64,000 bases of DNA from an uncultured Candidatus Saccharibacteria bacterium (lineage in GTDB: Bacteria > Patescibacteriota > Minisyncoccia > Phycocordibacterales > JAACPR01), in the NCBI GenBank assembly GCA_964630375.1, contig CAZVRT010000001.1, positions 71,379 to 135,378 of the forward strand, given 5' to 3'. Below the pieces are notes generated by a model. That model ran no database searches and was not told the origin of the DNA. It worked only from the letters and a program-made list of their open reading frames with translations. Positions 28,398 through 57,770 of this stretch are shown piece after piece (the first letter of the stretch is position 1; each line of letters opens with the position of its first letter). The position numbers and the translations under genes are program-made.

Positions 28398-29192
28398 ATG
28401 AAAAATTTTTTCAGCCAGAAAGCAAAAAAATCTTTAGGACAAAACTTTTTAAAATCAGAAAAAGCATTGAATCAAATGATTGAATGTTCTGATTTAAAAA
28501 AAGATGAGGTTGTTTTAGAAATCGGACCAGGGCGTGGAGCATTAACAAAAAAACTTTTAGAAAGTGGAGTGAGAGTTGTGGCTTTAGAAAAAGATGACGT
28601 GTTGGCGAGGGAATTGGGAGCGGTGTTGAAAAACTTTTGTGAGAGTGGGCAGCTTGAAATACTTTCAGTGGATGCTTTGCAATTCGACCCGAGCGACCAT
28701 GAAAAATTAAAATCAAAATATAAAATTGTTGCCAACATCCCTTATTACATCACAGGTGCTTTAATCGAAAAATTTTTAACTGAAAAAAATCCTCCTCAAT
28801 CAATTTCATTTTTAGTTCAAAAAGAAGTTGCAGAAAGAATAATGTCGAGAGACAAGAAAGAAAGTATTCTTTCAATTTCAATAAAAGTTTTTGGAAATCC
28901 AAAATATATCGCAACTGTTCCAAAAGGAGCTTTCGTTCCTGCACCAAAAGTTGATTCAGCAATCATTCACATTGCCAATATCTCAAATAAAATTTTCGAA
29001 GAAAACAAAATCACTGAACAAAGATTTTTTGAAGTTGTAAAAGCCAGCTTCGCTCACAAAAGAAAACAGCTAGGAAAAAATCTGGAAAACATAGTTTCAA
29101 AAGAACAATTTGAAAATTGCAAAATCAGCCCAAAAACAAGAGCAGAGGAGTTGAAAGTAGAAGATTGGATTTGTTTGTCTAAAAGTTTATAA
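28398..29192 (+). CDS. rsmA: 16S rRNA (adenine1518/1519-N6)-dimethyltransferase
   Basis: The sequence KKSLGQNFLKSEKALNQM...VLEIGPGRGALT...NIPYYIT is the KsgA signature. Confidence 0.85.
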   Translation: MKNFFSQKAKKSLGQNFLKSEKALNQMIECSDLKKDEVVLEIGPGRGALTKKLLESGVRVVALEKDDVLARELGAVLKNFCESGQLEILSVDALQFDPSDHEKLKSKYKIVANIPYYITGALIEKFLTEKNPPQSISFLVQKEVAERIMSRDKKESILSISIKVFGNPKYIATVPKGAFVPAPKVDSAIIHIANISNKIFEENKITEQRFFEVVKASFAHKRKQLGKNLENIVSKEQFENCKISPKTRAEELKVEDWICLSKSL

Positions 29193-30042
29193 AATTTCCG
29201 TCACCCATTGGTAAATCAGACATATCCGAAGGCATTATTCCAGAGCTACCAACACCCGGACCCCTATTGATAACACCATCAACTCTTAAAGGAATCTGAC
29301 ATTGTGGGTCAACTCGTCTTGAATAACATTCCCCACCCATATCATATGTTCCAAGACCATACTGCCCGGGTTGAAGATCATAAAATAGATAAAATTTTGT
29401 ATAAGGCAAGTCAACTTTTAGTAGTTTGACACTATTAGTTACAAATTCCCACATAAAGACCACGTATTTTTGACCTTCAATAGGCGCGGGCTCACAATCA
29501 CACTCTATTCTGAATTGAACAAGTCCACCAAACGGCTCTCCTTGATGATGAATTTGTTCTGCCCAAGGAGTTTCAGTCGATTGTCCAGCGTCACCAATAC
29601 CATTTATAGGAAGATTCGAATCAGAAATATTTGATTTTGGCTCATAAGCAACACTCGGAGTAGGATTTCCGTCTGAAACAAAGTTTTTAAGTGTATAATT
29701 TTCTGGTTTATAAGGAAAAGGATTTGGTGTTCCCATAAGTTTTTGAAACTCCAAATCATATTGTCGAGCTTTCATAGCCGCAATATTAGCCTCTTGTCTT
29801 CTCATAAAATTACTATTTGGATCTCGGCCTTTATCATAGTAAAAATTCTCATATCTTTTCTCAGCTTGAGCAATTTCAGAACGAAGCCTATCAACATTCC
29901 AACCCATTGGAACAGCGGCAACACTTGCATCTTTTAAAACAGCCGGATCAAAATCAGTTTTAACAACAAACATAATTAAAATAAGAGCCAAAATCAAAAC
30001 AGTTGAGCCTTGAAAGATATTTTTAAACTGATTTTTAACCAT
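29179..30042 (-). CDS. Hypothetical membrane-anchored, Cys-containing exported protein
   Basis: It has an N-terminal TM helix (STVLILALILIMFVV) and several Cys pairs (ECDCEP, GGECY...QCQ). Confidence 0.4.
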   Translation of the reverse strand: MVKNQFKNIFQGSTVLILALILIMFVVKTDFDPAVLKDASVAAVPMGWNVDRLRSEIAQAEKRYENFYYDKGRDPNSNFMRRQEANIAAMKARQYDLEFQKLMGTPNPFPYKPENYTLKNFVSDGNPTPSVAYEPKSNISDSNLPINGIGDAGQSTETPWAEQIHHQGEPFGGLVQFRIECDCEPAPIEGQKYVVFMWEFVTNSVKLLKVDLPYTKFYLFYDLQPGQYGLGTYDMGGECYSRRVDPQCQIPLRVDGVINRGPGVGSSGIMPSDMSDLPMGDGNFINF

Positions 30043-30067
30043 TAGAAAAAATTATATCACGCAATTT

Positions 30068-30925
30068 TTGATATCTGTTATAATTTCTTTAATGTTAAAA
30101 CCTAGCAAAAAAGTTGCGAGCATTATGATAATCGTCGGAGCAGTCACAATTGCTTCTATTGGTTCAGATATCATCAAAAAAAATGATTTGGCTAAAAAAA
30201 GCATGGCTTTGGTTAGTGGAATTTTTGAAGAGGATAAGAGTGTTAAATCAATTGAAGACTACCTAATTTCTCGTACTTCAAATGAATCAGCAACACAAAA
30301 TGAAGAGCTAACAACCCCAAAAACTGTTACTGATTTTACTTTATCTGCACTTTTTAATAATTATCAATCTTTAAAAATTCAATCTTTAAACACATTTGAA
30401 AATGTTGATTTATTAACCACAACACTAGCCGAACAAACAACAGAATTCACAAAACTTCCAAACAAATATTCAATATTAAATCTTAAAACATTTCCAGATT
30501 ATGAAAAAGAGAAGGCAAAATATTATGGTAATGAGTTTGCAAAAATAACAGAAAAGTATTTCAAGCAGCAGTTTTTTATTGAAGAAGAAGATTCAATGAA
30601 ATATATCAAAACTTATGCAAATATAAAAATAAGCAACAGCGATGAATTGGCAAAAATAGAAATTCCAAGAAGTATCTCCGACGAACACTTAGAATTTACT
30701 AACAACTTAACAAAAGTGGGAATCGCTCTTGTAAAACTAGCAGAATCTGAAGACGATCCTATTCTTTCAGCAATGATTATAAAACAGTATGAAGAAATCA
30801 GAGATACCCAGCCAAAAATTTTGTTAGCAATAGCAAATTATTTTAAAAAAAATGATATAATTTTTTACGATGATGAACCTGGTGCAATGTGGAACACGAT
30901 AAATGAAAAAGGTAATCAGTTTTAG
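30068..30925 (+). CDS. Hypothetical membrane-anchored protein (first gene of the T4SS-like cluster)
   Basis: The 285-aa ORF has an N-terminal TM helix. It is co-directional and tightly spaced with the downstream cluster. Confidence 0.4.
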   Translation: MISVIISLMLKPSKKVASIMIIVGAVTIASIGSDIIKKNDLAKKSMALVSGIFEEDKSVKSIEDYLISRTSNESATQNEELTTPKTVTDFTLSALFNNYQSLKIQSLNTFENVDLLTTTLAEQTTEFTKLPNKYSILNLKTFPDYEKEKAKYYGNEFAKITEKYFKQQFFIEEEDSMKYIKTYANIKISNSDELAKIEIPRSISDEHLEFTNNLTKVGIALVKLAESEDDPILSAMIIKQYEEIRDTQPKILLAIANYFKKNDIIFYDDEPGAMWNTINEKGNQF

Positions 30926-32405
30926 AGATATGAAAAAATTACTTAAAACAACAATAACTGGAACATTAATCATCGCAACTGGTTTTTATTTCGCTTTTCA
31001 CACAGGAACAAGAGAGACTCAAGCTCAGCAAACTCCTCCTACAAACATTCGAGTAACTTGTGCACCTGATAAAGAATTTGTTTTGAGAAATAGCCCAGTA
31101 AAATTCACAGCGACAGTTCAAAACGCAACTTCAACAATTATCTACAGTTGGAGAGGAGCAAACATCACATCAAGAAATGCACCAGATGTAACAGCACAAT
31201 ACGGTAGTTTAGGAGTAAAAAGAGCAACAACAACAATTAACACCGGTGGAGTAACTCTTTCTGCAGGTTGTAGCGTAACTGTAGTAACAACACTTCCTGG
31301 AGGCAGCAACCAAGGTGGAAATCAACAAAATCCTTTAGGAAACCTTCCACAAGGAGGTAACCAAACAGGAAACCAAAGTGGAAATAATAATTCAGGCGGG
31401 CAACAAAGCGGTGGAAACAATCAAGGTACACCAATTCCTCAAACACAACCCCAGAGAGAAGAGGCTGCCAGACAACAAGCTCGACAAAATTATGAAAGAG
31501 AGCAACAGCAAGCAGAGAGAACTTTCGAACAAGAAAAACAACAATGTGAAGAAGGTGAAACCTCACAAGGTTCGAGTGATTCAATTAAAGACTCTATTGA
31601 GGGAGACATTGCACAAGACGCAGAAATGTTTGGCCAAATGGTTCCCACAGATCCAAAACCAATTGTCGATCCTATAAAAAACATTAGAGAAAATATAGAA
31701 AGGTTAACAGCAAAAGAAATTGGATTGAAAGATTCACAAGAACCTCCTTTAGATCAAAAAGTTGCATGTAAAGCGGATGCTGCTATTAAAAAAATAGCAG
31801 AACAAAGTAGAAACTTTCTGTCTCAAGGAAGAGATGGTAACCCTTATTGGATTACGGACTACAATGCACTTATTAAAGACAGTAACGACATTGGCAGATC
31901 AAGACACATAACAGCATTAGCAAACGATCAATCATGTAAATCAGCAGAAAATAAGAAAATTGCACAAGCGCTAGCCTCAGTACCAAGATCTATTATTGGC
32001 GCAGAATCAACTGAGACATCGTGTCCGATGAATCAAAATAAAGACTTGAATGACCTAAACACTTACCTGAGTTATAGTGATCCTCTTAATAATCCCGCAT
32101 ACAGATTTGCAGAAAAATATTCAGCTATGATTTCGGTGAGTGCAGAAACAGTAGATCTAGCAAAATATGAGACTGAAATTAACAATGGCTTTATAGGAGT
32201 TAAGGACGAAAATGGGAAAATAATTAATCCTCCAAACATATACGCCAACACAGCTTTATTTAATATAAATAATGAAGTTGGTAGACTTGGTAGTTTGCAT
32301 GAAATTACAGACGGAGAAAGTGTTTTATTTGAAAACTTTCTTGGTAAAACAGGAATAGATAATATTGCAGGAGTTCAGGAAGGAAATTCGGATCTACCTG
32401 CTTAA
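30903..32405 (+). CDS. Hypothetical surface protein with low-complexity GGNQ/Q-rich linker
   Basis: It has a TM anchor, a beta-rich Ig-like region, (GGNQ)n repeats, a Q/E-rich coiled coil and a C-terminal Cys-containing globular domain. Confidence 0.4.
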   Translation: MKKVISFRDMKKLLKTTITGTLIIATGFYFAFHTGTRETQAQQTPPTNIRVTCAPDKEFVLRNSPVKFTATVQNATSTIIYSWRGANITSRNAPDVTAQYGSLGVKRATTTINTGGVTLSAGCSVTVVTTLPGGSNQGGNQQNPLGNLPQGGNQTGNQSGNNNSGGQQSGGNNQGTPIPQTQPQREEAARQQARQNYEREQQQAERTFEQEKQQCEEGETSQGSSDSIKDSIEGDIAQDAEMFGQMVPTDPKPIVDPIKNIRENIERLTAKEIGLKDSQEPPLDQKVACKADAAIKKIAEQSRNFLSQGRDGNPYWITDYNALIKDSNDIGRSRHITALANDQSCKSAENKKIAQALASVPRSIIGAESTETSCPMNQNKDLNDLNTYLSYSDPLNNPAYRFAEKYSAMISVSAETVDLAKYETEINNGFIGVKDENGKIINPPNIYANTALFNINNEVGRLGSLHEITDGESVLFENFLGKTGIDNIAGVQEGNSDLPA

Positions 32406-32457
32406 TTTAAATAGGAAAAAAAGACTTTTAATTAAAAATTGGTGATATAATTTTTGT

Positions 32458-34608
32458 ATGAGTTTTTTGTTTAAGAAGAGAAAAATTTTTCTTTTTATTT
32501 TGTTGTTTGTTATTTTCCTTGCTCAACCAAATAATTTAAAAGCTGAAGACATGGGCGGTGGTATCTATGGATCAATGATAGGTGACAACATTGATAAAGC
32601 TAATGAAGCTCGAGCTGTTCTTACAAATCCAGAGTCAACAGAATCAGAAAAGAGCAGCGCACAAGCTACTATTAATAATGTAGAAGCAGGAAACAATCCT
32701 AACGGGACTAGCATGTCTGGATTAGGTGATACAGCAATGAGAATAATGGAAGGGCTAGTTGCTGCTGCAATTCCTTTTGCAGCTTTATTCTCACTTCCTT
32801 TCGGAATGATCGCTTTTGCTCTTTCTAGTCTTGTTTTAGGCATGGCTTCTTATGGAGTAGATTTAGCACTAGAAATAGGAGTCAATTTAATGTCTCAAAT
32901 AGTTCATAATGATGCAAATTCCGTTAAAACATCTTGGCAAATTTTTAGAAACATAGGAAATGTTGGGATAATATTTGCAACTATATACATAGCAATAAAA
33001 ACTGTACTAAGAGCAAGTGGTTATGATGGCAAGGTTTTACTTGGAAGAGTGGTTGTTGCGGGTCTATTAATAAATTTTAGTTTCTTTTTTGGAGCACTAG
33101 TTGTAGATGTTTCTAATATCATGTCTCTTGAAATCTATAAAAAAGTTGCAGAGATAACAGGTGATGGAGAAAAAGTAAAGCTTGGAGAATTCATGTTTAA
33201 TCGTACCTCTCCAGGAATGTTTCAATCTGCCATAACAAAAGACGCTGAGCCTGTTACTAGAGAGTTTTTTGAAACAACATTTAAAAATCAATCGGAAGGA
33301 GGAGGAAATGCTATAACAAATTTTCTAAGAAGTGCCACTCTTTTTACAGTAAACTTTTCTTTAGGGTATATATTAGGAACTGTCGCAAACTTAGCTTTAG
33401 CTGTTGTTATATTCATGGCTATTTTTATGATTTACTCAAGGTTAATAATAATATTATTACTACTAGTAATTTCTCCACTAGCTTTTGTAGGAATGATACT
33501 TCCCAACACACAAAAAATGTCTAAAGAATGGTGGGACTCTTTAATAGGTCAATCGTTCTTTCTACCTGCTTTTTTATTATTTCTATTAGTAAGTTTAAAA
33601 CTAATAGAAAATCTACCCGATCTAAACAACTCTGTAGTAGGCACTCAAGATCAGCTTCAACTAACAGGTCTGGCTAGTTACGCAAAAATCTTTACACCGC
33701 AAATATTTAATTATTTGATGGTAATAGGTTTCTTTGTTGCTGCATTAATGGCAGCCAAAAAAGTTTCTAGCATGGGAAGTGCAGCAATAAATAAGATATC
33801 TTCATCAATTACAGCTACAACAGGTGGAGCAGCGGCAGCGGGGTTGGCATTTGCAGGAAGAAATACAATTGGTGCAGGTGCAAACGCTATGGCATCCAGA
33901 TTTGCAAAAACCGATTTTGCACAAACAAGAACAGGTATGGTGTTGTTAGATAGCATGAAAGGTGTTGCTAAAAACAGTTTTGATGCTCGAGAATCAATAG
34001 CATTTAAAGGTGTAGCATCAGCCACAGGTGTTGGTGGTGATTTCAAAAATACCCTTGCCCCACAAAAAGGTGGCTACATAGATCAGCAAAAACGTGCTGA
34101 AGAAAGAAGAGTTAAATTGGCAGGCAATCTAAGCAACGACTTAACACAAATCCAAAAAGACGAAGCTAAACAAAGGTCAACAACCATGGAAAACATGGTA
34201 GACAACGATGGAAATGTCGTAACAAAAGACCAAGCAGTTCGCACTGCAGACGCCGCACTTAAAGCAGCAAAAAGAAGTGGTAATGTGGCAACAATACAAA
34301 GTGCACAAACTACTCTTCAAACTGCCAAAAGAGAGGCTGAAGAAGCTCGTGAACTTGTAAAAACCTCAGCAGCGTACAAAGCTGAAAAAGAGGCTCTTGA
34401 TGCAATTGTTTCAGCACGAGGAGCATACGCAAAAAGTCTTGAAGGGGATCCAGGTAAAATATCTACTATTAGAACCTTAGGGACAACTTGGCTTCCAGGA
34501 AGCAGGTCTGCGGACAAATCTGCTGCTAAAAAAATTATGGCACAAAAATCTGAATCAGAAAAACTACTAGAAGGTCTAAAGAAAGCAATGGAGAACAGTG
34601 GGAAATAA
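32458..34608 (+). CDS. Polytopic membrane protein, VirB6/TrbL-like T4SS channel component, with a long C-terminal extension
   Basis: It has a signal peptide and at least six TM helices in a roughly 420-aa core, as in VirB6/PrgH-like proteins, followed by an Ala/Lys-rich coiled-coil tail of about 250 aa. Confidence 0.45.
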   Translation: MSFLFKKRKIFLFILLFVIFLAQPNNLKAEDMGGGIYGSMIGDNIDKANEARAVLTNPESTESEKSSAQATINNVEAGNNPNGTSMSGLGDTAMRIMEGLVAAAIPFAALFSLPFGMIAFALSSLVLGMASYGVDLALEIGVNLMSQIVHNDANSVKTSWQIFRNIGNVGIIFATIYIAIKTVLRASGYDGKVLLGRVVVAGLLINFSFFFGALVVDVSNIMSLEIYKKVAEITGDGEKVKLGEFMFNRTSPGMFQSAITKDAEPVTREFFETTFKNQSEGGGNAITNFLRSATLFTVNFSLGYILGTVANLALAVVIFMAIFMIYSRLIIILLLLVISPLAFVGMILPNTQKMSKEWWDSLIGQSFFLPAFLLFLLVSLKLIENLPDLNNSVVGTQDQLQLTGLASYAKIFTPQIFNYLMVIGFFVAALMAAKKVSSMGSAAINKISSSITATTGGAAAAGLAFAGRNTIGAGANAMASRFAKTDFAQTRTGMVLLDSMKGVAKNSFDARESIAFKGVASATGVGGDFKNTLAPQKGGYIDQQKRAEERRVKLAGNLSNDLTQIQKDEAKQRSTTMENMVDNDGNVVTKDQAVRTADAALKAAKRSGNVATIQSAQTTLQTAKREAEEARELVKTSAAYKAEKEALDAIVSARGAYAKSLEGDPGKISTIRTLGTTWLPGSRSADKSAAKKIMAQKSESEKLLEGLKKAMENSGK

Positions 34609-34626
34609 ATCTTCATAAAAAATAAA

Positions 34627-35589
34627 ATGAATCCAGAAATACAAGATATAATCCAAGAACAATTTAAATCTCTTCCAAAAGTGATCCAAGAAACTATTCT
34701 TGATTCAAAATGGCAAGATAAAATTCGTCGAATTGTAAAAGTTAATAATCTACACGTTGATCAAGGAGCTGCTATTGAAAATCTTGTTTTAATTACAATG
34801 CTCGGAATCGAAATACCGGAAGATTTTGTTAAGAATGCTAAAGAATATGCAAAAGTTAATGACGAACAAGCGCAAAACATTTCTGCACAAGTAGAAAGAG
34901 AAATCTTTGGTGACATCAGAAAAAAACTTATCGAAACCACAGACGCGGTGGGGACTATTGGTGAAATTGAGCAAGCAACAAATGAGCTGGATAAAGTAGC
35001 AGCTGAAATTGAAAAACAAGCAAAAAATACACCAGCACCTATATCGTCGACAAAACCTTCTCTGAAAGAAAAAATCCCGGCAAATTATTTTGACAAAAAT
35101 TACGAAGCTTCTACACCTTCTGCTTCTGTATCTACTGTTACCCCAACAGTTCCACCAACACAAGCAGAACAAGTCCCTGAAGCAGTGCGAGAAGAAACAC
35201 CTGCACTAGAGCCACAATCACAACCTGAACCAGAAATTATCCCTGAAACAATTCCTGAAATTGAAACAGCACCAGAACCAATCGTAATTGAACCTAAAGA
35301 AATTCCACAAGAAGCACCGATTGAACTAAATGAAACTAACATTGACTCGGTAATTCCTGAAGTTTCAGAAGAAGTCCAAATAGAAACTCCGAAAGAAGAT
35401 CCTTACAGAGAAGAAATTGAGCCAGAAGACATAAAACTAACACCTGCTAAAATTCAAAAGCCAATTTTCACACCAATGCCAAAAAACCTAGACGACACAA
35501 TGATTAATTCACCATCTGAAACACCAGACTTAATTACAGATACTCCGGTTACTGCAAAAGTTGATCCGTATCGCGAGCCAATAGAGTAG
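34627..35589 (+). CDS. Hypothetical acidic Pro/Glu-rich protein
   Basis: It has an N-terminal globular domain of about 110 aa, followed by an extended P/E/T/I-rich low-complexity region. Confidence 0.4.
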   Translation: MNPEIQDIIQEQFKSLPKVIQETILDSKWQDKIRRIVKVNNLHVDQGAAIENLVLITMLGIEIPEDFVKNAKEYAKVNDEQAQNISAQVEREIFGDIRKKLIETTDAVGTIGEIEQATNELDKVAAEIEKQAKNTPAPISSTKPSLKEKIPANYFDKNYEASTPSASVSTVTPTVPPTQAEQVPEAVREETPALEPQSQPEPEIIPETIPEIETAPEPIVIEPKEIPQEAPIELNETNIDSVIPEVSEEVQIETPKEDPYREEIEPEDIKLTPAKIQKPIFTPMPKNLDDTMINSPSETPDLITDTPVTAKVDPYREPIE

Positions 35590-35599
35590 AATAATAAAT

Positions 35600-36031
35600 A
35601 TGAAATACCAAGTTCCACAATTCCTAGAAGTTGAAGATAAAATTTTTGGGCCGTTTACTTTAAAACAGTTCCTTTACGTAGGGGCAGGAATCGCTATCGG
35701 ATTTGTGCTTTGGACAACATTTCCAAGATTTTTAGCAATTCTTATCGGAGTACCAATCATCACTTTATTTTTTGGTTTAGCTTTTTGGAAAATAAATGAT
35801 CGACCTTTGGCAGAAGCAATTGAAAACATGTTCAAATACACTTTTGCGCCAAAACTTTATCTTTGGAAAAAACGAGAGAAAGTTCCTGAAAAACAAGCTG
35901 CGGAAATTATCAGCCACGCGAAGCTTGATGTACCAAAGCTTTCAAACAGCAAGCTAAAAGATTTGTCATGGGGTCTTGATATTCACGAAACTCTAGAAAC
36001 TTTAGACGACATTGCACCAAGAAAAGAATAA
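35600..36031 (+). CDS. Small two-TM membrane protein, VirB3/PrgI-like
   Basis: The 143-aa protein has two adjacent TM helices near the N-terminus. It sits upstream of VirB4, as in Gram-positive-type T4SS operons. Confidence 0.4.
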   Translation: MKYQVPQFLEVEDKIFGPFTLKQFLYVGAGIAIGFVLWTTFPRFLAILIGVPIITLFFGLAFWKINDRPLAEAIENMFKYTFAPKLYLWKKREKVPEKQAAEIISHAKLDVPKLSNSKLKDLSWGLDIHETLETLDDIAPRKE

Positions 36032-36072
36032 ATAAATTTTATTTTATTGTTTTTTGTTATAATAAAAACAAT

Positions 36073-36705
36073 ATGGCAGAAAGCAATAAAGCAACTCAAT
36101 CAATTGTTCCAATCAGAGAAGTTAGAAATGGAATTATAGTTTTAAAAGATGGTTCGATGAGAGCTTTGCTTATGACTTCTTCTATCAACTTCGCTCTTAA
36201 ATCACAAGACGAACAAGATTCTATTATTTTCCAATTTCAACAATTTCTAAACTCATTAAATTTCAGCGTGCAAATTTTTCTTCAATCAAGACGACTTGAT
36301 ATTCGACCTTATATCGCAACTTTGGAAGCAAGAGAAAAAGAACAAGTAAACGATTTGATGAGAATTCAAACAAAAGAATATGTGGAATTCATCAAAGCTT
36401 TCACAGAAAGAACAAACATTATGACAAAAACTTTTTATATTGTTGTTCCTTATACGCCTCCTGCATTGGCGATAAATAAATCTGAAGAAAAAGGATTGTT
36501 TAAAAAGAAAGCAACAACAGCAGTGGGAAAGAAAGAAGACTTTGAAGAATTAAGTACACAACTAGAACAAAGAATTGCAGTAGTTCAGCAAGGTATTACG
36601 AGAACCGGCGTGCGTGCAGTACAATTAGGAACAGAAGAAGCAATTGAAGTTTTTTATAGACTATTTAATCCAGGAGATGTAGAAAAACCGATTCCGGTGC
36701 ATTAA
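36073..36705 (+). CDS. T4SS-associated protein resembling the N-terminal region of VirB4-family ATPases
   Basis: The sequence IVPIREVRNGIIVLKDGSMRALLMTSSINFALKSQDEQDSII..FQQFLNSL follows the conserved N-terminal pattern of PrgJ/TraE-type VirB4 proteins. It ends 5 nt before the VirB4 ORF. Confidence 0.35.
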   Translation: MAESNKATQSIVPIREVRNGIIVLKDGSMRALLMTSSINFALKSQDEQDSIIFQFQQFLNSLNFSVQIFLQSRRLDIRPYIATLEAREKEQVNDLMRIQTKEYVEFIKAFTERTNIMTKTFYIVVPYTPPALAINKSEEKGLFKKKATTAVGKKEDFEELSTQLEQRIAVVQQGITRTGVRAVQLGTEEAIEVFYRLFNPGDVEKPIPVH

Positions 36706-36710
36706 AAAAT

Positions 36711-38591
36711 ATGGCGTTACTAGACTTTCTAAAAGGAAAACAGCAAAAAGAACCAACACAAATCACTTCTTTTTTGCCACAAGAAATTTACGAAGCGGGA
36801 GTTTTGGAACTTCAAGATGTTATTGCACCTAGTGCTTTAAAAATTACTCCGAGAGAAATAAACTTGGGAGATAAACTTGTGAGAAGTTTCTTTGTTATTT
36901 CATATCCTCGATATCTTTCAGATTCTTGGTTTTCTCCTATCATCAACCTAGACAGAGTTTTTGATATTTCTATTTATGTTCACCCAATAGACACCGCAAC
37001 AATTCTTCGACAATTCAAAAAGAAAGTTGCTGAAGTTCAATCACAAATTCAAACTCGAGAACAAAAAGGTTTGGTTCGTGATCCTGTTTTGGATACTGCA
37101 TATCAAGATTTGGAAATTCTTCGAGACAATTTGCAACAAGCTCAAGAAAAGATTTTTGATGTTGGACTTTATATTTCTATTTACGCAGATAGCAAAGATG
37201 AGCTGGATAAATTTGAGTCAGAAGTAAAATCAATTCTTGAAGCTAAACTTGTTTATGTAAAACCAGCGCTTTTCCAACAAGAAGAAGGCTTCCGAACAAT
37301 TATTCCAACAGCTCAAGATTTACTTGGTGTTCACTCAAAATTAAATTCTTCACCACTTTCAAGTATTTTCCCATTTATTTCTTTCGACCTTACTGCCGAT
37401 AAAGGAATTTTGTTTGGAATCAACAGACACAATAGTTCACTTATTTTGTTTGATAGATTTAGTTTGGAAAACTACAACTCGGTAACTTTTGCAAAAGCTG
37501 GTTCTGGAAAATCTTACGCAACAAAGCTGGAGATTTTGCGAACTCTAATGTTTGAAACTGATGTTATTGTTATCGACCCTGAAAGAGAATATGAATTTTT
37601 GGCAGAAGCGACAGGAGGGAGATACTTCAACATTTCTCTGACTTCAGATCACCACATCAATCCTTTTGATCTCCCACCTGCAAGAGAAGATGAATCACCT
37701 GCAGATATTTTGCGTTCAAACATCGTAAACCTTGTAGGACTTTTCCGACTTATGCTTGGTGGTCTTACACCTGAAGAAGATGCGATTGTCGACAGAGCGA
37801 TTGCTGAAACTTACGCACTGAAAGACATCACACCTGAAAGTGATTTCTCAAACATCGAACCACCACTTCTTTCAGACTTTGAATACGTTCTATCTGGAAT
37901 GGAAGGAGGGGATGTTTTGGCACAAAAACTTTCTAAATACACAAGAGGTACTTGGTCAGGTTTCATTAACAGACCAACAAACGTTGATATCAACAAAAGA
38001 TTCGTTGTGTTTTCTTTGAGAGACATGGAAGACGAACTAAAGCCTGTCGCGATGTATTTGGTAACACACTTTATTTGGAACGCAGTTCGAAAACAATTAA
38101 AGAAAAGACTTCTTGTTATCGACGAGGCATGGTGGATGATGAAATCTGATGACACTGCATCTTTCTTGTTTGGATTAGCAAAACGAGGTCGAAAATACTA
38201 TTTAGGAATGTCTACAATTACTCAAGACGTTGAAGACTTTTTGCGATCGCCTTATGGAATGCCGATTATTACAAACTCTTCAATTCAACTTTTGTTGAAA
38301 CAATCACCAACTGCGATTGATATGATTTCTCAAACTTTCAATCTTACAGACGAAGAAAAATATTTGCTTCTAGAATCTGATGTGGGAGAGGGAATTTTCT
38401 TTGCTGGAATTAAACACGTTGCAATTAAAATCATTGCGTCTTATACAGAAGATCAAATTATTACTTCTGACCCATCACAAGTTCTTCAAATTAAAAGAGC
38501 AAAGGATGATTTGAAGGCTTCAGCAGGAACTCAAACTCCAGACGAACTAGCAAGAAGAACAACTGAAATAAAGTCTAATACCATAAACTAA
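36711..38591 (+). CDS. virB4: VirB4/TraE/TrbE-family conjugal-transfer ATPase
   Basis: It has Walker A AKAGSGKSYATK, Walker B LLVIDEAWWMM, and the N-terminal VirB4 domain (ITPREINLGDKLVRSFFVISYPRYLS). Confidence 0.8.
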   Translation: MALLDFLKGKQQKEPTQITSFLPQEIYEAGVLELQDVIAPSALKITPREINLGDKLVRSFFVISYPRYLSDSWFSPIINLDRVFDISIYVHPIDTATILRQFKKKVAEVQSQIQTREQKGLVRDPVLDTAYQDLEILRDNLQQAQEKIFDVGLYISIYADSKDELDKFESEVKSILEAKLVYVKPALFQQEEGFRTIIPTAQDLLGVHSKLNSSPLSSIFPFISFDLTADKGILFGINRHNSSLILFDRFSLENYNSVTFAKAGSGKSYATKLEILRTLMFETDVIVIDPEREYEFLAEATGGRYFNISLTSDHHINPFDLPPAREDESPADILRSNIVNLVGLFRLMLGGLTPEEDAIVDRAIAETYALKDITPESDFSNIEPPLLSDFEYVLSGMEGGDVLAQKLSKYTRGTWSGFINRPTNVDINKRFVVFSLRDMEDELKPVAMYLVTHFIWNAVRKQLKKRLLVIDEAWWMMKSDDTASFLFGLAKRGRKYYLGMSTITQDVEDFLRSPYGMPIITNSSIQLLLKQSPTAIDMISQTFNLTDEEKYLLLESDVGEGIFFAGIKHVAIKIIASYTEDQIITSDPSQVLQIKRAKDDLKASAGTQTPDELARRTTEIKSNTIN

Positions 38592-38592
38592 A

Positions 38593-39234
38593 ATGGCAGT
38601 AATTCGTGAAGCAAGAAGTTCAAATGTAAACTTAGATGGAAGCTCATTTAATAAAAGAAATCAGCTAACTCAAGTAGCTAGACAACAATTAGTAACTACT
38701 CTAGAAAAAAACTTCCAAAAAGAGCTCCAAGATTCTGAGTTTCTAGATGATGTTATTAAAAATCTTCAAACAAAAGAAGATGTTGCTGACTTTATTGATT
38801 CCGCACCTGAAAAAATGGATTTTCCATTTGTTATATTTACAATAGCTCTAGTCGTTGACATTCTAGACATATCTGAATTTTCAGGATTTGCTTATTTTGT
38901 AACAGCAATAATAAAAGTATTGTTTACAGCCATCATTTGGATTTGGCTTTTAGGAAAATTAAATGGATTGTTTAGAGTTGGGTCTAGAGTCGCTTTTAAA
39001 GGAAGTCAATCTGCCGTTCAACAAAAAGCAAAAACGGCATCTAAACAGTTTTTGAGAAAATATTTATCAAGAAGAGCAGTTGCTATTATCATAGTTAACT
39101 TTATTCCAGTAATAAGCATCCTCGCAAGTTGGGCGTTTTTTATTTTTTTGGCATACAACAGGCACAATAAATTAGCTAACGCTTACATACAAGCAGTAAG
39201 CTCTATTAAAATCAATAATATAAAGAAAAAATAA
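38593..39234 (+). CDS. Hypothetical membrane protein in the T4SS cluster
   Basis: The 213-aa ORF has several TM helices and starts 2 nt after the virB4 stop. Confidence 0.4.
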   Translation: MAVIREARSSNVNLDGSSFNKRNQLTQVARQQLVTTLEKNFQKELQDSEFLDDVIKNLQTKEDVADFIDSAPEKMDFPFVIFTIALVVDILDISEFSGFAYFVTAIIKVLFTAIIWIWLLGKLNGLFRVGSRVAFKGSQSAVQQKAKTASKQFLRKYLSRRAVAIIIVNFIPVISILASWAFFIFLAYNRHNKLANAYIQAVSSIKINNIKKK

Positions 39235-39263
39235 TCTAGTTAACTTTTTAAAAAAGAGTTAAA

Positions 39264-40313
39264 ATGTATTTAATGAAATATTTATTTTTACTAATAGCCA
39301 TTTTTCTTCCATTTCAAACATTTGCGCAACTATCTTCATCTTTCTCGTCCATTACAGAAAGAGCTGTTATTGAACTAAGCCCAGAATTTCCAGAACCAAA
39401 TCAAACAGTAACAGCAAAAGTTAGGAGCAGTAGTTACGAGAGTCTGGACTCAGCAAATATCGTTTGGCACATAAATGATGTTGAAAGAAAAAGAGGAATT
39501 GGAGAAACCACATTCCAATTCACCGCCCCAGAGCCAGGAAGAAATATGGAACTTTTTGTTACGGTAGAAAAAAATGAGCAAGATACTTTTGCAAACTTTA
39601 TAAACATCCAAACTGCAGAACTTGATTTAATTTATGAAGCAAATACATACACACCTCCTTTCTATAAAGGAAGATCTATTTTTACACCTCAATCAACAAT
39701 CACATTTTCTGCATTGGCCAAGGTTTATGAAAACGGAGCATTACTTCCAAAAAATAGGGTTACTTATAATTGGTATGTAAATGACAATTTCGTTTCAGAT
39801 TTATCTGGCACAGGAAAAGACAGTATGATTTTTCAAGGAGATATATTATCTAGACCGTTTTCTGTATCTGTTTCAGTGGGCTCTGCTAATTCAAATACAA
39901 AATCTAGAAAGAAAGTTGTCATAAATGCGATACAGCCTAAAGTTGTTCTTTACGAAAACAATCCAATTTATGGAAATATGCTTGAAAAAGCATTAACGGG
40001 AACTTTCAATTTCGACAGAGAAAAAGTTAGTTTAACAGCCATTCCATATTTTTTCAGCACAAATAATAGAAATTCATCTCAATTAACATATAAATGGTAT
40101 GAAAATGGACAAAGAATTGGTAATGAGACTTTCGGTAGCTTTATAAATTATTTAAATCCAAATCTAGCAAAATCTGGGGTTTCAAACATTAGTGTTGAGG
40201 TAGATCATGGTAACAGCTTTCTTCAATCTGGAAAAAGTTTCTTCCAAGTAAATGTTTTAGGTCAACAACAATCTGGTACAATAAATACAAATGAAAAACC
40301 ATCCGCTTTCTAA
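39264..40313 (+). CDS. Hypothetical secreted beta-rich protein in the T4SS cluster
   Basis: It has a signal peptide (LFLLIAIFLPFQTFA) and repeated Ig-like segments. Confidence 0.4.
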   Translation: MYLMKYLFLLIAIFLPFQTFAQLSSSFSSITERAVIELSPEFPEPNQTVTAKVRSSSYESLDSANIVWHINDVERKRGIGETTFQFTAPEPGRNMELFVTVEKNEQDTFANFINIQTAELDLIYEANTYTPPFYKGRSIFTPQSTITFSALAKVYENGALLPKNRVTYNWYVNDNFVSDLSGTGKDSMIFQGDILSRPFSVSVSVGSANSNTKSRKKVVINAIQPKVVLYENNPIYGNMLEKALTGTFNFDREKVSLTAIPYFFSTNNRNSSQLTYKWYENGQRIGNETFGSFINYLNPNLAKSGVSNISVEVDHGNSFLQSGKSFFQVNVLGQQQSGTINTNEKPSAF

Positions 40314-40773
40314 AATAAAATTTCTAGCAATTTTTACAAGCATCTTTTTTAGTATATTTTTTGTCGCTTTTAGTATTTTTACTCCAACAACTTTTGCTCA
40401 AGATGTTGAAGCGGCTCCCATAGAACTACATGGACCACCGGATTATCTTGCTGGTGGAAACACTTATCGTCCAATCACTCCCGGAACAGATGGAGTTGGT
40501 GGATTTTTAAATTTCGGAGGAAGTTTTGAACAAATGCTTCAAAGACTTTTTGAAATGGGAGTTATGATCACAGTTATTTTGGCAGTCATTATGATTATCT
40601 GGGGAGGAGTTGAATATATGGGAAGTGAATCTGTTTTTGCGAAAGGAGAGGGTAGAGATAGAATAAAATTTGCAATCTGGGGACTGATGATTGCACTAAT
40701 TTCAATTCTTCTAATCTCAACAATTCTTCCCGGAGGAACTGGTGGTACTTTTGAAATAAACATATTTGGATAA
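40291..40773 (+). CDS. VirB2/TrbC-like pilin candidate
   Basis: The 160-aa protein has a signal peptide plus two hydrophobic helices (VMITVILAVIMIIWGG, LMIALISILLISTIL), which is the VirB2 pilin architecture. Confidence 0.4.
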   Translation: MKNHPLSKIKFLAIFTSIFFSIFFVAFSIFTPTTFAQDVEAAPIELHGPPDYLAGGNTYRPITPGTDGVGGFLNFGGSFEQMLQRLFEMGVMITVILAVIMIIWGGVEYMGSESVFAKGEGRDRIKFAIWGLMIALISILLISTILPGGTGGTFEINIFG

Positions 40774-40777
40774 TTAA

Positions 40778-41539
40778 ATGAAAGAATTATTTAAAAACAA
40801 AATATTTATTGCGGCACTTGCTTTGGTTTTAGTTTTCGCAATTATTGGAATTATTTTTACTTTTAGAACTCCTGAAGCCGAAAATACTGAAAATAACCAA
40901 GTAGTTACACAGGATTTTGACTTCACAAGAGAAGACACTGTTCAAGAAGATACAGAAACTTACTCTAATTTTGGGGTAAACAGATTAAGAGTTGTTTCAT
41001 ACGGCGGAGCATCAGACATTAAAACTTACACAGAAAGAACTTCTGAATATGCACTTACAAGAAATCCTAGAAACACCGGCGGATTAACTTTTGCAGCTTC
41101 AAATGATTATGGGGAATTTTATTTTGCAATCAATCAAGACGAACAAAGAATAATTTTTAATGAAGGAACATCAGAAGGAAAGTTTGGATATGAAGATGTT
41201 GGGGAAGTAAGTGGAACGTTGATACGAGAAAGAATTCCCAGCGCAGAATATTATGCAGCGTACCCTATAAGCGAGCTGGCGCTTAAAGCCGGTTTCCAAC
41301 AAATTCCTGACACAGGAGCTGCAAATAATTTTCTAAAAGATAAATATTTGAAAATCACAAATATTAATAACAACAGACAAGTAGTTGTAGAAATTGATAC
41401 ACGAAATCACATAGAAGATTCTCTAATGATTTCTGAAGCTACAAGAAAAGCTTTGCTGGTAGACAACGGAATTCTTGGAAGCTTCAATCTGCAAATTGTT
41501 GATAAAGAAGAAAACACGCTGGGAGTTGTACAAAGATAG
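40778..41539 (+). CDS. Hypothetical membrane-anchored protein in the T4SS cluster
   Basis: It has an N-terminal TM helix and a 230-aa extracytoplasmic domain. Confidence 0.4.
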   Translation: MKELFKNKIFIAALALVLVFAIIGIIFTFRTPEAENTENNQVVTQDFDFTREDTVQEDTETYSNFGVNRLRVVSYGGASDIKTYTERTSEYALTRNPRNTGGLTFAASNDYGEFYFAINQDEQRIIFNEGTSEGKFGYEDVGEVSGTLIRERIPSAEYYAAYPISELALKAGFQQIPDTGAANNFLKDKYLKITNINNNRQVVVEIDTRNHIEDSLMISEATRKALLVDNGILGSFNLQIVDKEENTLGVVQR

Positions 41540-41553
41540 AGTATAATAATTTC

Positions 41554-42870
41554 ATGATTAGAAAAATATTAGGTTGGACAATTTTTGTTTTAATTTTTGC
41601 TTTCATTATTTTTATTATCTGGCTTTTCTTTTTAAGAGGAGATTCAAATGAAAGTACTTATTCTCCAACAGGACGACCAGAAGATTTTTTTCCAGCAAAC
41701 ATTCCTAATCTAAATCAAAACGGCGAAATTGATCCCGATCCAAATCGCACAGGACAAGCAAACAGAAATCTTATTCCACGAATCAGACAACTGTCTCAAG
41801 TACCAGTAGCAGGTTCAGTTGCTTTTTCTCGAGCAGGAAATACTTCTAGACCAGTGGTAAATCCAGATGGTTCTGAAAGCAGAGAACAAAGCACTTATAC
41901 TGTTTTTAGATACGTAGAGCGCTCAACTGGGCATTTATATGAAGCCAGAGAGGATTCTCTAACACAAACAAGACTATCAAACACAACAATTCCAAAAGTT
42001 GTAGACGCTTTTTTCTCACGAGATGGAAATAATGCGATTTTGAGAATTCTTAAAGATGACCAAGAAACAATTGATACACTTTCTGCTTCAGTTGTTCAAA
42101 AATCAACAACTTCTCCATCCGGAAGTGGAATAGTGGCGGACGGATATGCTCTTGAAGGTCCTTATCTTTCACAAAATATTATCGATGCAAAAATCAGCTC
42201 TGCAGGATTAACTTATCTTATTCCAAAAAACACAGGTGGGAGTTCTTTGATTACTTCAAACTTAAGCGACTTGGCAAAGAGAATTGTTTTTGACTCTCCA
42301 TTGAAAGATTGGGTTATCTCAAGAATAAACAACAACAGTATTTTGTTCACAACTAAAGCAGATTCACGAGTTGCCGGTTTCTCATACCTTATAAACGCCC
42401 AAAATGGCTCTAGCCGAAAACTTTTAGGCGATTTGCCAGGATTGACCACTTTGCTTAGTCCAAACGAAAAATGGCTGATTTATTCTGTTTCAAACAACAA
42501 TGAATTTAGTACTTTTGTATTAAACACAGACACAAACGAAACAAAAAGATTTGGAGTAAACACATTGCCTGAAAAATGTGTGTTCAGTCAGCAAAATTCT
42601 GATTTGCTATTCTGTGCCGGACCTTCTCAAATGCCACGAGTGCCAATGCCAGAATCTTGGTACCAAGGAACAGTTAGTTTAAATGACAACCTTTGGAGAG
42701 TTGATCTTTCTACTCAAAACTACGAGCAAATTCACAGCGACAGAGAAGAAGTAGAACAAAGCTTTGACATGATAAAACTGGAAATCAGCTCAAACGACGA
42801 ATTCCTTTTGTTTGTAAACAAGAAAGATTTAACTCTTTGGAGTATTGAAACAGCAAATATTGTTAGATAG
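41554..42870 (+). CDS. Hypothetical membrane-anchored protein (last gene of the T4SS cluster)
   Basis: It has an N-terminal TM helix and a roughly 400-aa beta-rich domain. Confidence 0.4.
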   Translation: MIRKILGWTIFVLIFAFIIFIIWLFFLRGDSNESTYSPTGRPEDFFPANIPNLNQNGEIDPDPNRTGQANRNLIPRIRQLSQVPVAGSVAFSRAGNTSRPVVNPDGSESREQSTYTVFRYVERSTGHLYEAREDSLTQTRLSNTTIPKVVDAFFSRDGNNAILRILKDDQETIDTLSASVVQKSTTSPSGSGIVADGYALEGPYLSQNIIDAKISSAGLTYLIPKNTGGSSLITSNLSDLAKRIVFDSPLKDWVISRINNNSILFTTKADSRVAGFSYLINAQNGSSRKLLGDLPGLTTLLSPNEKWLIYSVSNNNEFSTFVLNTDTNETKRFGVNTLPEKCVFSQQNSDLLFCAGPSQMPRVPMPESWYQGTVSLNDNLWRVDLSTQNYEQIHSDREEVEQSFDMIKLEISSNDEFLLFVNKKDLTLWSIETANIVR

Positions 42871-43633
42871 TTTTCTCTTTTTCTGCTTTCTCTTTCTCAG
42901 CTGGCTTTTTAATAGTTTCTCGGATGTAAAGCTCTTGTCCGATTCCAAAAAGGTTTGAAACTGTCCAATAAAGAGCAACTACTGAAATAAGTCCATAAGA
43001 AATACCGAAAATCATCACAGGCAACACCCACTTGATTTGAATTTGCATTCCTTTCATAAAATCAGCTTGAAAATCAACTTTTCCTGTTTGCTCTGGTTTT
43101 TTAGGTTCTGTTTTTGGAAATGAAAGTCTTGCTTGAATATGTTGAGTAAGAGCCGCCAAAAATGCCAAAACAAAGCTTTTTGATTCAGCAATGTGGAAAA
43201 CTCCCAAGAAAGTCATATCAACATTTTCGGGTGCAGGAATAAAAGAATAAAGAATATCTACATTGATAGCAGGAAGACCTCCTTTATAAATAACCCAATA
43301 CAAAGCCAAAATAACCGGAAGTTGAATAATAATCAGCAAAATTCCTGAAAAAGGATTTATTTTATTAACTCTGTAAAGCTCAAGCATTGCTCGTCCAAGC
43401 TCTTCGCGGTTATCTTTATATTTAGTTTTCAATTCTTCAAGCTCACCTTGTATTTCTCGAGTTTTAATAGATGTTCGAACCGCTGATTTTGAAAGAGGGA
43501 ACAATACGAATTTTACGATTAAAGTAAGTATTATCACCGCAAATCCCACGTCTCCACCAGGAATAATATCGATAAATAAAATTAAAGCGTTGTATAAAGG
43601 TGTAAAAAATAAGTCGTTGAATAGTTCTTTCAT
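42863..43633 (-). CDS. yidC: Membrane protein insertase YidC/Oxa1 (short form)
   Basis: The motifs GFAVIILTLIVKFVLFPL...QLPVILALYWVIY match the YidC core. It is located after rnpA, as expected. Confidence 0.85.
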   Translation of the reverse strand: MKELFNDLFFTPLYNALILFIDIIPGGDVGFAVIILTLIVKFVLFPLSKSAVRTSIKTREIQGELEELKTKYKDNREELGRAMLELYRVNKINPFSGILLIIIQLPVILALYWVIYKGGLPAINVDILYSFIPAPENVDMTFLGVFHIAESKSFVLAFLAALTQHIQARLSFPKTEPKKPEQTGKVDFQADFMKGMQIQIKWVLPVMIFGISYGLISVVALYWTVSNLFGIGQELYIRETIKKPAEKEKAEKEKTI

Positions 43634-43959
43634 TGCTTGGTAATTATAGTTGTCAAAATGTGTCTAAGCAAGGATGTGATTTGTTTGTAATCCATCTCTA
43701 AAATATCTTTGGTCGCAAACACTATGTAGTCAGCAACGGGGAATAGGTCTTTATTTTCTTTAATTGCATGAAATACTCGTCTTTTTATCAAATGTCTTCT
43801 AATGGCACTTTTTGTGACTTTCTTAGAAACAACAACAGCGAATCGTGATTTGTCGTTATTTAAGGTTTTAAAATAAAAAGCTCCGGCACTGATATTTTTG
43901 CCGGAAGCAATTACCTCATTGAATCGTTTTGTGTCAATTCTTTGGTCTTTTGGAAGCAT
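43630..43959 (-). CDS. rnpA: Ribonuclease P protein component
   Basis: It has the RNR-like basic motif (AIRRHLIKRRVFH) and the conserved rpmH-rnpA-yidC synteny. Confidence 0.85.
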   Translation of the reverse strand: MLPKDQRIDTKRFNEVIASGKNISAGAFYFKTLNNDKSRFAVVVSKKVTKSAIRRHLIKRRVFHAIKENKDLFPVADYIVFATKDILEMDYKQITSLLRHILTTIITKQ

Positions 43960-43962
43960 TGT

Positions 43963-44097
43963 TTAAACAGAAAGCTTAGATCGGCCTTTAGCCCGTCTTC
44001 TGTTCAAAACGTTCTTTCCTCCTGGAGTTTTTGATCTAACCAAAAAACCGTGAGTTGTTTTTCTCTTTTTTCTGCTTGGTTGGTATGTTACAGACAT
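43963..44097 (-). CDS. rpmH: 50S ribosomal protein L34
   Basis: The manual translation [44 protein letters not shown] is a canonical 44-aa L34. It is below the ORF-track size cutoff. Confidence 0.85.
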
Positions 44098-57610: not shown

Positions 57611-57770
57611 TGCAGTAATTTTAGCACACAAATTGATGTGCAAAATTTTTTTTATTTGATTTGTTTAGGAGGAAAATTCGGGAAGTGTTTTAAAGTGCTG
57701 CCAAAGTATTGAGGGGATACGGATAGGTGCAGATTGACATTTTGTGTTTTTATTGTTATTATTCCAGACA

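Follow-up and report, generated by a model that had tools for sequence, protein, structure and literature searches.

Organization of the locus

A type IV secretion system (T4SS) gene cluster occupies positions 30068-42870 of the window analysed here, which is the whole stretch of 64,000 nucleotides (nt) taken from contig CAZVRT010000001.1 of an uncultured Candidatus Saccharibacteria bacterium (assembly GCA_964630375.1). The cluster is tiled by 12 co-directional open reading frames (ORFs) on the plus strand, which code for proteins of 143 to 716 amino acids (aa) each and are termed g1 to g12 in their order along the strand (Table 1). An initial annotation, made from the sequence alone, had counted thirteen genes. 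This number has to be corrected to twelve, since an ORF scan down to 25 aa yielded no further non-overlapping ORF between 30068 and 42870 and leaves no space for another. The tight packing of the genes is as had been described: successive junctions measure -23, 52, 18, 10, 41, 5, 1, 29, -23, 4 and 14 nt, and 9 of the 11 are shorter than 30 nt. The GC content ranges from 0.33 to 0.38 across the window, and the cluster is not marked by a GC shift.

Upstream, the cluster is flanked by uvrD and ksgA, the latter ending at position 29192. Downstream follow yidC, rnpA, dnaA and dnaN. The proposed location next to the replication origin is supported by dnaA, dnaN and a cluster of DnaA-box-like sites on this side of the locus.

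Five of the twelve genes are recognisable by their sequences as T4SS parts: the two genes of a split VirB4 with a TrsD-like N-domain, a PrgI/VirB3 gene, a VirB6-like gene and a pilin gene. The remaining seven are accessory genes. Eight membrane-anchored or secreted proteins of unknown function had been listed initially. Seven other genes are indeed present beside the recognisable parts; however, the eighth protein turned out to be TrsD-like, and two proteins, g4 and g6, are cytoplasmic and carry no transmembrane (TM) segment.

The VirB4 motor and the putative translocon core

The 626-aa product of g7, for which a VirB4 ATPase had been proposed, matches the NCBIfam model conju_CD1110 with 370.7 bits (E 1.5e-110), which exceeds the curated cut-off of 325 bits (the curated cut-offs of other models are given in brackets below, likewise in bits). 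Further Pfam matches comprise TraG P-loop, AAA_10 and DUF87. Both Walker motifs are intact, with Walker A (AKAGSGKS) at residue 261 and Walker B (LLVIDE) at residue 467, and together with the score they confirm the assignment. A weak match to CedB was found in NCBIfam as well (E 9e-9, 34.5 bits, cut-off 700).

In BLASTP searches, g7 aligned to residues 203-757 of the 797-aa VirB4 encoded by Clostridium botulinum pCDC3875 (E 1e-89), with 31% identity over 562 alignment columns, and g6 aligned to residues 20-197 of the same protein (E 2e-13). The NCBIfam matches of g6 are N-terminal parts of VirB4 models and TrsD (E 2.7e-6), every score being below cut-off. The two genes lie in different frames and are separated by 5 nt. 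Since they align to consecutive parts of one clostridial VirB4, VirB4 is split cleanly into two genes at this locus. Two genes upstream of virB4 (g7), the 143-aa protein g5 reaches 38.9 bits (cut-off 27, E 1.3e-9) with the Pfam family PrgI, in agreement with the VirB3-like protein expected from the initial annotation.

Relatives of the locus were collected by scanning one genome per species. Out of 591 found, the best 80 by VirB4 similarity constitute the related loci (L001-L080) referred to throughout. Located directly upstream of the g4-virB3-virB4 genes, g3 is kept in 56 of these 80 loci, and its placement just ahead of the VirB3 and VirB4 genes is the same as in Firmicute plasmids. The protein comprises 7 hydrophobic segments followed by a long hydrophilic C-terminal tail. 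It matches the NCBIfam model MMCAP2_0566, a conjugal-transfer family of a Mycoplasma integrative and conjugative element, below cut-off (35.6 bits, cut-off 90, E 5.9e-9), and Pfam TrbL/VirB6 is matched by 3 of 23 g3 orthologues (best E 6e-5). An hhalign comparison of g3 with one single clostridial VirB6 gave no significant match. The seven TM segments, the position and the family matches make g3 the probable VirB6, as which the polytopic protein of the cluster had been listed.

The pilin candidate g10 displays a signal peptide and two TM helices that flank a basic loop. Its score with the Pfam family PF18895 (T4SS_pilin) is 22.6 bits and lies just below the cut-off of 26.6 (E 1.1e-4). However, PF18895 is matched by 36 of 42 positional orthologues with a best E of 2.4e-10, and one orthologue matches TrbC/VirB2 (E 8.3e-7). 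The membership of g10 in the pilins is therefore given by its family and not by the single sequence, and on this basis the VirB2-like pilin suggested initially is upheld.

In relatives of the window, the pilin orthologues are often 260-500 aa long, and their second TM helix is followed by C-terminal extensions that are long and differ strongly between species (for example L077:12870-14111, L002:12990-14216, L004:13462-14496 and L035:13314-14381). The orthologue of L077, whose extension contains SxHxxGxAxD-type peptidase motifs, is the likely source of a single VanY (peptidase M15) match, and several of the extensions resemble coiled coils. The window has a short pilin instead, and the bitopic protein g11 is encoded by a gene of its own downstream of it.

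Table 1. Genes of the T4SS cluster and other features of the window, with positions counted from the first letter of the window.
Feature	Position	Strand	Remarks
Tyrosine recombinase	18898-19830		Xer-type N-terminal domain
ComM-like protein	23082-24671	+	Mg-chelatase family
287-aa protein	29179-30042	-	membrane-anchored, Cys-containing; divergent from cluster
g1, bitopic membrane protein	30068-30925	+	first cluster gene; ~277 aa if start is ATG 30092
g2, 500-aa protein	30903-32405	+	fast-evolving slot; no family match
g3, VirB6-like, 716 aa	32458-34608	+	7 TM segments, position, NCBIfam match below cut-off
g4, acidic cytoplasmic protein, 320 aa	34627-35589	+	DPYREPIE tail; candidate ATPase-docking adaptor or substrate
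g5, VirB3 homologue (PrgI family), 143 aa	35600-36031	+	Pfam PrgI; hydrophobic hairpin
g6, TrsD-like, 210 aa	36073-36705	+	detached VirB4 N-terminal domain
g7, VirB4 ATPase body, 626 aa	36711-38591	+	NCBIfam conju_CD1110; motor of the system
g8, membrane protein, 213 aa	38593-39234	+	3 TM segments; lineage-variable slot after virB4
g9, secreted protein, 349 aa	39264-40313	+	signal peptide and three tandem Ig-like domains (AlphaFold2)
g10, VirB2-like pilin, 160 aa	40291-40773	+	PF18895; signal peptide, two TM helices
g11, bitopic protein, 253 aa	40778-41539	+	this lineage only; one TM segment
g12, membrane-anchored beta-propeller, 438 aa	41554-42870	+	last cluster gene; AlphaFold2 model
Origin-region genes yidC (-), rnpA (-), dnaA (+), dnaN (+)	42863-46929		Pfam; context, outside the machine
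Likely oriC	45585-45780		between dnaA and dnaN
135-aa ORF	51882-52289	-	no family match
YebC/TACO1-family ORF, 176 aa	52377-52907	-	possibly part of a split or interrupted gene
PilB-type type II/IV secretion ATPase	55838-57643	-	T2SSE, E 7e-119

Conservation of gene order and inheritance

The genomes that hold the related loci are metagenome-assembled genomes (MAGs). Many of them are labelled Taylor-, Campbell-, Kaiser-, Zambryski-, Nomura- or Wolfebacteria, Paceibacterota or Parcubacteria, and many others bear the generic labels uncultured Saccharibacteria or 'bacterium'. Among the best 120 matches listed, the nearest VirB4 proteins are 79-95% identical to g7 and, where named, derive from Paceibacterota, Parcubacteria or Pacebacteria MAGs. 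The closest VirB4 proteins of plasmids, which belong to Firmicutes and Actinobacteria, are 31-35% identical. Three proteins of the window have identical copies in the protein collection, two of which are encoded on a 207-kb NCBI contig. Because the named close homologues stem from Paceibacterota and Parcubacteria MAGs, the guess of the initial annotation that the DNA belongs to a reduced-genome episymbiont is considered to be right.

In the related loci the genes are arranged in the order uvrD - ksgA - g1 - g2 slot - virB6 - g4 - virB3 - trsD - virB4, followed by a variable small membrane protein, g9, the pilin, g12, yidC(-), rnpA(-), dnaA and dnaN. A check of synteny across Patescibacteria had been advised, and this gene order was found to recur in dozens of Paceibacteria species. 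VirB3 (g5) is present in 77 and TrsD (g6) in 79 of the 80 loci. The genes yidC, rnpA, dnaA and dnaN lie 3' of the cluster in 50-58 of the 80 loci, and the range for all flanks including ksgA is 44-58. The recurrence of the same gene order in dozens of Paceibacteria species argues for a vertically inherited chromosomal system rather than an integrated conjugative element.

Median identities to the window proteins decrease from 79% for VirB4 (taken across the 79 species L002-L080) to 60% for DnaA, 59% for TrsD, 53% for UvrD, 49% for DnaN, 47% for KsgA, 46% for VirB3, 44% for YidC, 36% for the pilin, 30% for g12, 29% for g9 and 26% for VirB6. VirB4 is more conserved than DnaA (44216-45574) in 51 of the 51 loci holding both, a comparison biased by the choice of the loci according to VirB4 similarity. 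Within these VirB4-selected loci, the identities are evidence for a stronger constraint on the motor than on DnaA.

The slot between ksgA and g1 is occupied by unrelated minus-strand ORFs in the related loci, which points to a variable spot at the edge of the cluster. In the window, a divergently oriented gene for a membrane-anchored, Cys-containing protein of 287 aa lies between ksgA and g1 (Table 1).

Mobility and conjugation genes

The Pfam scan covered 49 ORFs, i.e. the 12 cluster genes and 37 of the other window ORFs of at least 120 aa. Neither a relaxase (MOB) domain nor a coupling-protein (VirD4/TcpA) domain was detected among these 49 ORFs of the 64-kb window. Moreover, tblastn searches with a CD1115-type clostridial VirD4 found nothing in the window, nor, in the 80 related loci, at distances of up to 10 kb from virB4. 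The lack of a relaxase and of VirD4 noted initially hence extends to the 49 ORFs scanned. No att-like direct repeats bracket the cluster, and no integrase adjoins it. The only recombinase of the window is a tyrosine recombinase about 10 kb away. Its N-terminal domain is of the Xer type, and the genes between it and the cluster are mostly housekeeping genes. Outside of the cluster, the identifiable ones among the scanned ORFs are housekeeping genes, namely tig, clpP, rny, truD, cca, the Xer-type recombinase gene, comM, uvrD, ksgA, yidC, rnpA, dnaA, dnaN, PBP1, tyrS, ruvC, ruvB, the gene of a PilB-type ATPase, tsaE and polA. Due to the housekeeping flanks and the lack of a relaxase, an oriT-type element or an integrase beside the cluster, the view of the locus as a non-conjugative T4SS is supported.

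An integrated conjugative element was considered as an alternative and rejected for the window, given the lack of relaxase, coupling protein, adjacent integrase and att repeats, the flat GC content and the conserved housekeeping flanks. If relaxase, coupling protein and integrase were encoded beyond the region inspected, the locus could still belong to an integrated conjugative or mobilisable element. This would be in line with the VirB4, PrgI and VirB6 core, which resembles that of Firmicute conjugative plasmids in content and order, with the tyrosine recombinase gene, and with an inspection that covered 64 kb. Nevertheless, this recombinase is of the Xer type and distant, att-like repeats and a GC shift are both absent, the housekeeping genes on either side of the cluster are the same in dozens of species, its VirB4 evolves more slowly than DnaA, and in the 80 related loci no VirD4 was found up to 10 kb from virB4. 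In addition, only 109 relaxases are given for 3,035 Patescibacteria genomes in a recent survey (PMC12102498). Such an element is therefore regarded as extremely unlikely.

Comparison with known systems

The evidence presented above is best explained, with a probability of roughly 0.85, by a monoderm-type T4SS that belongs to the Patescibacteria VirB4 clade, is chromosomal and is inherited vertically. It would be derived from the monoderm conjugation type MPF-FATA and displays the Paceibacteria arrangement beside replication-initiation genes. The locus is an already described system, and its detection in the window represents a correct rediscovery of the published Patescibacteria T4SS. In the survey of 3,035 Patescibacteria genomes by Quinonero-Coronel et al. 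(2025; PMC12102498), the VirB4 proteins of the phylum form a monophyletic clade nested in MPF-FATA and have TrsD as their commonest companion. PrgI-type VirB3, VirB6 and VirB2-like pilins (PF18895, PF04956) are encoded near virB4, relaxases are nearly absent, and genes for coupling proteins are mostly distant. For Paceibacteria and Microgenomatia, dnaA, dnaN, rnpA, ksgA and rpmH are named as the neighbourhood of the T4SS, and a gene-dosage benefit of the position close to the origin was proposed by the authors.

The locus of the window agrees with this description in its VirB4 with separate TrsD, its PrgI-type VirB3, VirB6 and PF18895 pilin near virB4, in having neither a relaxase nor an adjacent coupling protein, and in its dnaA/dnaN/rnpA/ksgA neighbourhood. 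The differences, namely one pilin gene instead of an array and the lineage-specific genes g8 and g11, are not essential (PMC12102498).

A homologous T4SS of Southlakia epibionticum was shown by transposon sequencing to be essential for epibiotic growth, whereas ComEC is dispensable in this organism (Wang et al. 2023; PMC10633639). The cluster of strain ML1 (SEML1_0006-0019) is likewise a chromosomal monoderm-type T4SS with pilins, among whose genes neither a relaxase nor a coupling protein can be recognised (PMC10633639), and its low locus-tag numbers suggest a place near the start of the genome record. In contrast to the window, S. epibionticum belongs to another class (Saccharimonadia), and its locus contains an array of six divergent pilins as well as peptidase and lysozyme genes downstream of virB4. 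Furthermore, the finding of essentiality applies to S. epibionticum, the one species tested.

The MPF-FATA systems of Firmicutes (CD1110/CD1112/CD1115 type, C. botulinum pCDC3875) share the order VirB6 - PrgI - VirB4 with the window, the VirB4 proteins of pCDC3875 and the window being 31% identical over 560 residues. A separate TrsD, common to the window as well, is described as a trait of the pGO1 (Trs) subclass in the survey (PMC12102498). However, the Firmicute plasmid systems contain VirD4, a relaxase and a large SLT-type VirB1 but no pilin, whereas the window contains a pilin, an Ig rod, a propeller and a DPYREP protein but neither VirD4 nor a relaxase. Helicobacter ComB, archaeal Ced and Bordetella Ptl also work without a coupling protein nearby, and two of them, ComB and Ced, are importers of DNA. 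Apart from the common ATPase fold, no specific homology connects these three to the locus, and ComB is a diderm system.

The additions suggested by the present analysis are the folds of g9 and g12, the family of the g4 tail and the apparently leaderless state of many genes. The g4 tail family, the Ig rod and the propeller were not found in the consulted sections of the survey (PMC12102498). The T4SS of Patescibacteria is nearly universal in the phylum, is essential in the one species tested and constitutes an open problem of 'microbial dark matter'. As a typical example, the locus alone does not change the functional picture. It provides a clean, fully tiled Paceibacteria reference with folds for two conserved unknowns.

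The acidic protein g4 and its C-terminal tail

Located upstream of virB3, g4 encodes a protein with a net charge of -33. Its conserved N-domain spans about 100 aa and is joined by a disordered linker, rich in Pro and Glu, to the C-terminal tail DPYREPIE, while a second copy of the motif (EDPYREEIE) is found internally. The two motif positions are 35398 and 35563. An alignment of orthologues revealed that the N-domain and the tail (DPYREP followed by I, L or V) are conserved, whereas the length of the linker is very variable.

The sequence DPYRE occurs in 55 ORFs of the 80 related loci, and in 52 of these it lies 2-4 residues from the C-terminus. Those DPYRE ORFs that were compared with the g4 alignment and the gene-order table occupy the slot ahead of virB3. 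Within the 64-kb window the motif is confined to g4, once internal and once terminal. A search with the N-domain among 1.84 billion cluster representatives yielded 1789 relatives. Among the 150 top relatives, the C-terminus reads DP[YFW]R in 125 and DPY[LHKQ]EP in about 11 others. Since the tail had been excluded from the query, its conservation is independently confirmed. No Pfam model, no PDB relative in a profile search and no mention in the literature was found for g4. Judged by these sequence comparisons, g4 is the founding member of a large family that lacks annotation and whose C-terminal DPYREP tail is near-invariant.

C-terminal tails with binding functions are known from other proteins: in type VII secretion, the C-terminal tails of substrates bind FtsK-like ATPases, and the tail of the single-stranded DNA-binding protein SSB recruits partner proteins. 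By way of speculation, the tail of g4 could be a secretion signal or a motif that docks onto a partner, for which the VirB4/TrsD motor would be the simplest choice. Extending this idea, g4 might be an undescribed core part of the Patescibacteria T4SS, which docks with its tail into VirB4/TrsD and either replaces the coupling protein or is itself a conserved cargo, although this is considered improbable at present. If it were true, g4 would offer the first concrete biochemical handle on what the essential machine moves. The C-terminal motif, which is found across the family, could be used as bait in studies of interactions.

Putative extracytoplasmic and other accessory proteins

The protein g9 was modelled by AlphaFold2 with a predicted local distance difference test score (pLDDT) of 90.0. 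In this model, three Ig-like domains are arranged in tandem behind a signal peptide. Foldseek matched the model to Hoc, SiiE, sidekick and FnIII arrays (E ~1e-7), i.e. to generic Ig/FnIII rods. Orthologues of g9, which is present in 73 of the 80 related loci, show weak Pfam matches to Ig, PKD and BiPBP_C, and a PDB profile search gave Ig-like matches. According to its model, g9 is a candidate for an extracellular rod or adhesin of the machine.

The model of g12 (pLDDT 86.6) displays an N-terminal TM helix (residues 2-27), a disordered linker (residues 31-71) and a beta-propeller. TolB, tricorn, PD40 and WD40 propellers were retrieved by Foldseek (E ~1e-8), and TolB was found in the PDB profile search at E 0.022. 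The protein is present in 63 of the 80 related loci. A homologue of g12, P0233, has a peptidoglycan-binding domain (PF01471), which hints that the propeller acts at the cell wall. Based on the two models, g9 and g12 are plausible parts of an extracytoplasmic scaffold.

At the upstream end of the cluster, g1 has an N-terminal TM segment at residues 10-28. Its orthologues in 26 related loci occupy the slot after ksgA, are about 300 aa long and possess one TM segment. No match in Pfam, NCBIfam or the PDB was found for the g1 protein of the window, and a calcium-binding repeat detected in g1 orthologues by PDB profile search is absent from it. The adjacent g2 combines a weakly hydrophobic N-terminus with a Gly/Asn/Gln-rich low-complexity stretch and a coiled-coil-like region, and neither a Pfam or NCBIfam family nor a PDB sequence match was found. 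In relatives, the g2 slot holds a one-TM protein of 290-650 aa, with similarity to g2 being detectable in just 4 loci.

Two further genes are restricted to few loci. The membrane protein g8 has a basic N-terminus and no family match in Pfam or NCBIfam. Among the 80 related loci, L001 and L031 alone contain similar sequences, while the slot is filled by unrelated small proteins with 1-4 TM segments, or is empty, in the others. That g8 is a second, divergent pilin was ruled out by hhalign. A homologue of g11 exists in a single one of the 80 related loci, L001, and a sequence search of the PDB gave no match. A match to the NCBIfam model RlpA (E 3.7e-3, 17 bits, cut-off 82) suggests that the C-terminus of g11 may form a cell-wall-cutting double-psi beta-barrel (DPBB, RlpA-like) domain.

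Possible function

Since a relaxase and an adjacent coupling protein are missing, a role of the T4SS in host contact rather than conjugation is suggested. According to general knowledge of the T4SS family, VirB3, VirB6 and a VirB4 hexamer would form a membrane translocon. VirB4 could dislocate pilin out of the membrane and in this way assemble a pilus or conduit. The Ig rod and the propeller would organise how the wall is crossed, and the machine would act at the contact site with a host bacterium and not in conjugation.

With regard to the transported substrate, the uptake of host macromolecules such as nucleic acids is tentatively favoured over both effector export and pure adhesion, at somewhat less than even odds. 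This preference is based on an essential system beside a dispensable ComEC, on a phylum that lacks nucleotide synthesis and on a recent report of feeding on RNA, a 2026 preprint that describes tubular structures at the parasite-host interface together with the uptake of host RNA.

Alternatively, the machine could be an effector-protein translocator, which exports proteins into or onto the host and for which g4 with its DPYREP tail would be the substrate or a substrate adaptor to VirB4. Protein export was suggested as an alternative to DNA transfer by Wang et al. (PMC10633639), and effector systems that lack a coupling protein have precedents in Ptl and Brucella VirB. The g4 family combines a disordered region with an invariant motif at the C-terminus, where secretion signals of T4SS substrates are commonly located. 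However, a candidate effector repertoire is not evident in the cluster, and the universal conservation and fixed position of g4 fit a machine part better than a host-specific effector. Effector export is accordingly rated as rather unlikely.

An organelle that mainly serves adhesion, in which a VirB2-type pilus, the Ig rod and the propeller attach to the host and no substrate passes, could account for the conservation of the pilin and of extracellular Ig-type parts. The C-terminal extensions of the pilin orthologues are highly variable, and the pilin arrays of other classes vary in sequence (PMC12102498), which together suggests surface recognition. On the other hand, type IV pili, which are implicated in adhesion, are available for attachment in the same genomes, as exemplified by the PilB-type ATPase gene of the window, and the VirB4 motor together with the VirB3/VirB6 translocon is so highly conserved that the expected need of an adhesin is exceeded. 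A purely adhesive organelle is hence judged improbable.

Several points weigh against the proposed vertically inherited host-contact T4SS and its tentative role in uptake. The direction of transport is not decided by the sequence itself, and the role of the Patescibacteria T4SS is called 'completely unknown' in reviews, which mention effector delivery or nucleic-acid uptake. The window proteins g3 (VirB6) and g10 (pilin) score below the curated cut-offs, and no signal of VirB8 was obtained for g1, g11 or g12 in the Pfam, NCBIfam and PDB searches, the model of g12 being a beta-propeller and not a VirB8-type NTF2 fold. Ig and propeller folds are generic and specify no role, the assignment of g11 as a hydrolase rests on a 17-bit match to RlpA, and the bias of the comparison between VirB4 and DnaA has to be added. 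Finally, VirD4 homologues are encoded elsewhere in most Patescibacteria genomes, mostly far from virB4 (PMC12102498), so that a coupling protein from elsewhere may serve the machine.

Gene starts and putative origin

A -10-like hexamer ending 6-9 nt before the start was found at 19 of the 59 window genes compared with 2.2% of other ATGs (Fisher p ~1e-15), while Shine-Dalgarno-like motifs at proper distance precede about 2 of the 59 gene starts. The extended -10 sequence TGNTATAAT occurs 7 times in the window versus 2.4 expected. In the cluster, -10-like elements are located at 30051-30059(-), 30076-30084, 32443-32451 and 36055-36063 as well as upstream of 35600, 40291 and 41554, and such elements recur in related loci before virB3 (55%), g9 (65%), trsD (38%) and yidC (59%). 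These patterns suggest leaderless mRNAs and several promoters inside the cluster, namely before g1, g3, g5, g6, g10 and g12. A scan for sigma-70 promoters and terminators returned fewer sites than in shuffled sequences, and no relevant literature on leaderless genes in the candidate phyla radiation was found. The element at 30076-30084 (TGTTATAAT, extended -10) lies within the longer ORF of g1 and 7 nt ahead of ATG 30092. For this reason, g1 probably starts at this ATG and not at TTG 30068.

Between dnaA and dnaN, five sites with at most one mismatch from the DnaA box TTATCCACA are clustered in 196 bp, and this segment (Table 1) is likely to be oriC. Over the whole window DnaA boxes are not enriched, and the GC skew shows no clear switch at the putative origin.

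Other features of the window

The PilB-type ATPase and the ComM-like gene (Table 1) indicate type IV pilus and competence-related functions within about 15-20 kb of the T4SS. Within the YebC/TACO1-family ORF, the best-scoring stretch covers only positions 4-58 of the 160-position profile of the second and third domains. Together with the next ORF, which is 135 aa long, it could represent a split or interrupted gene.

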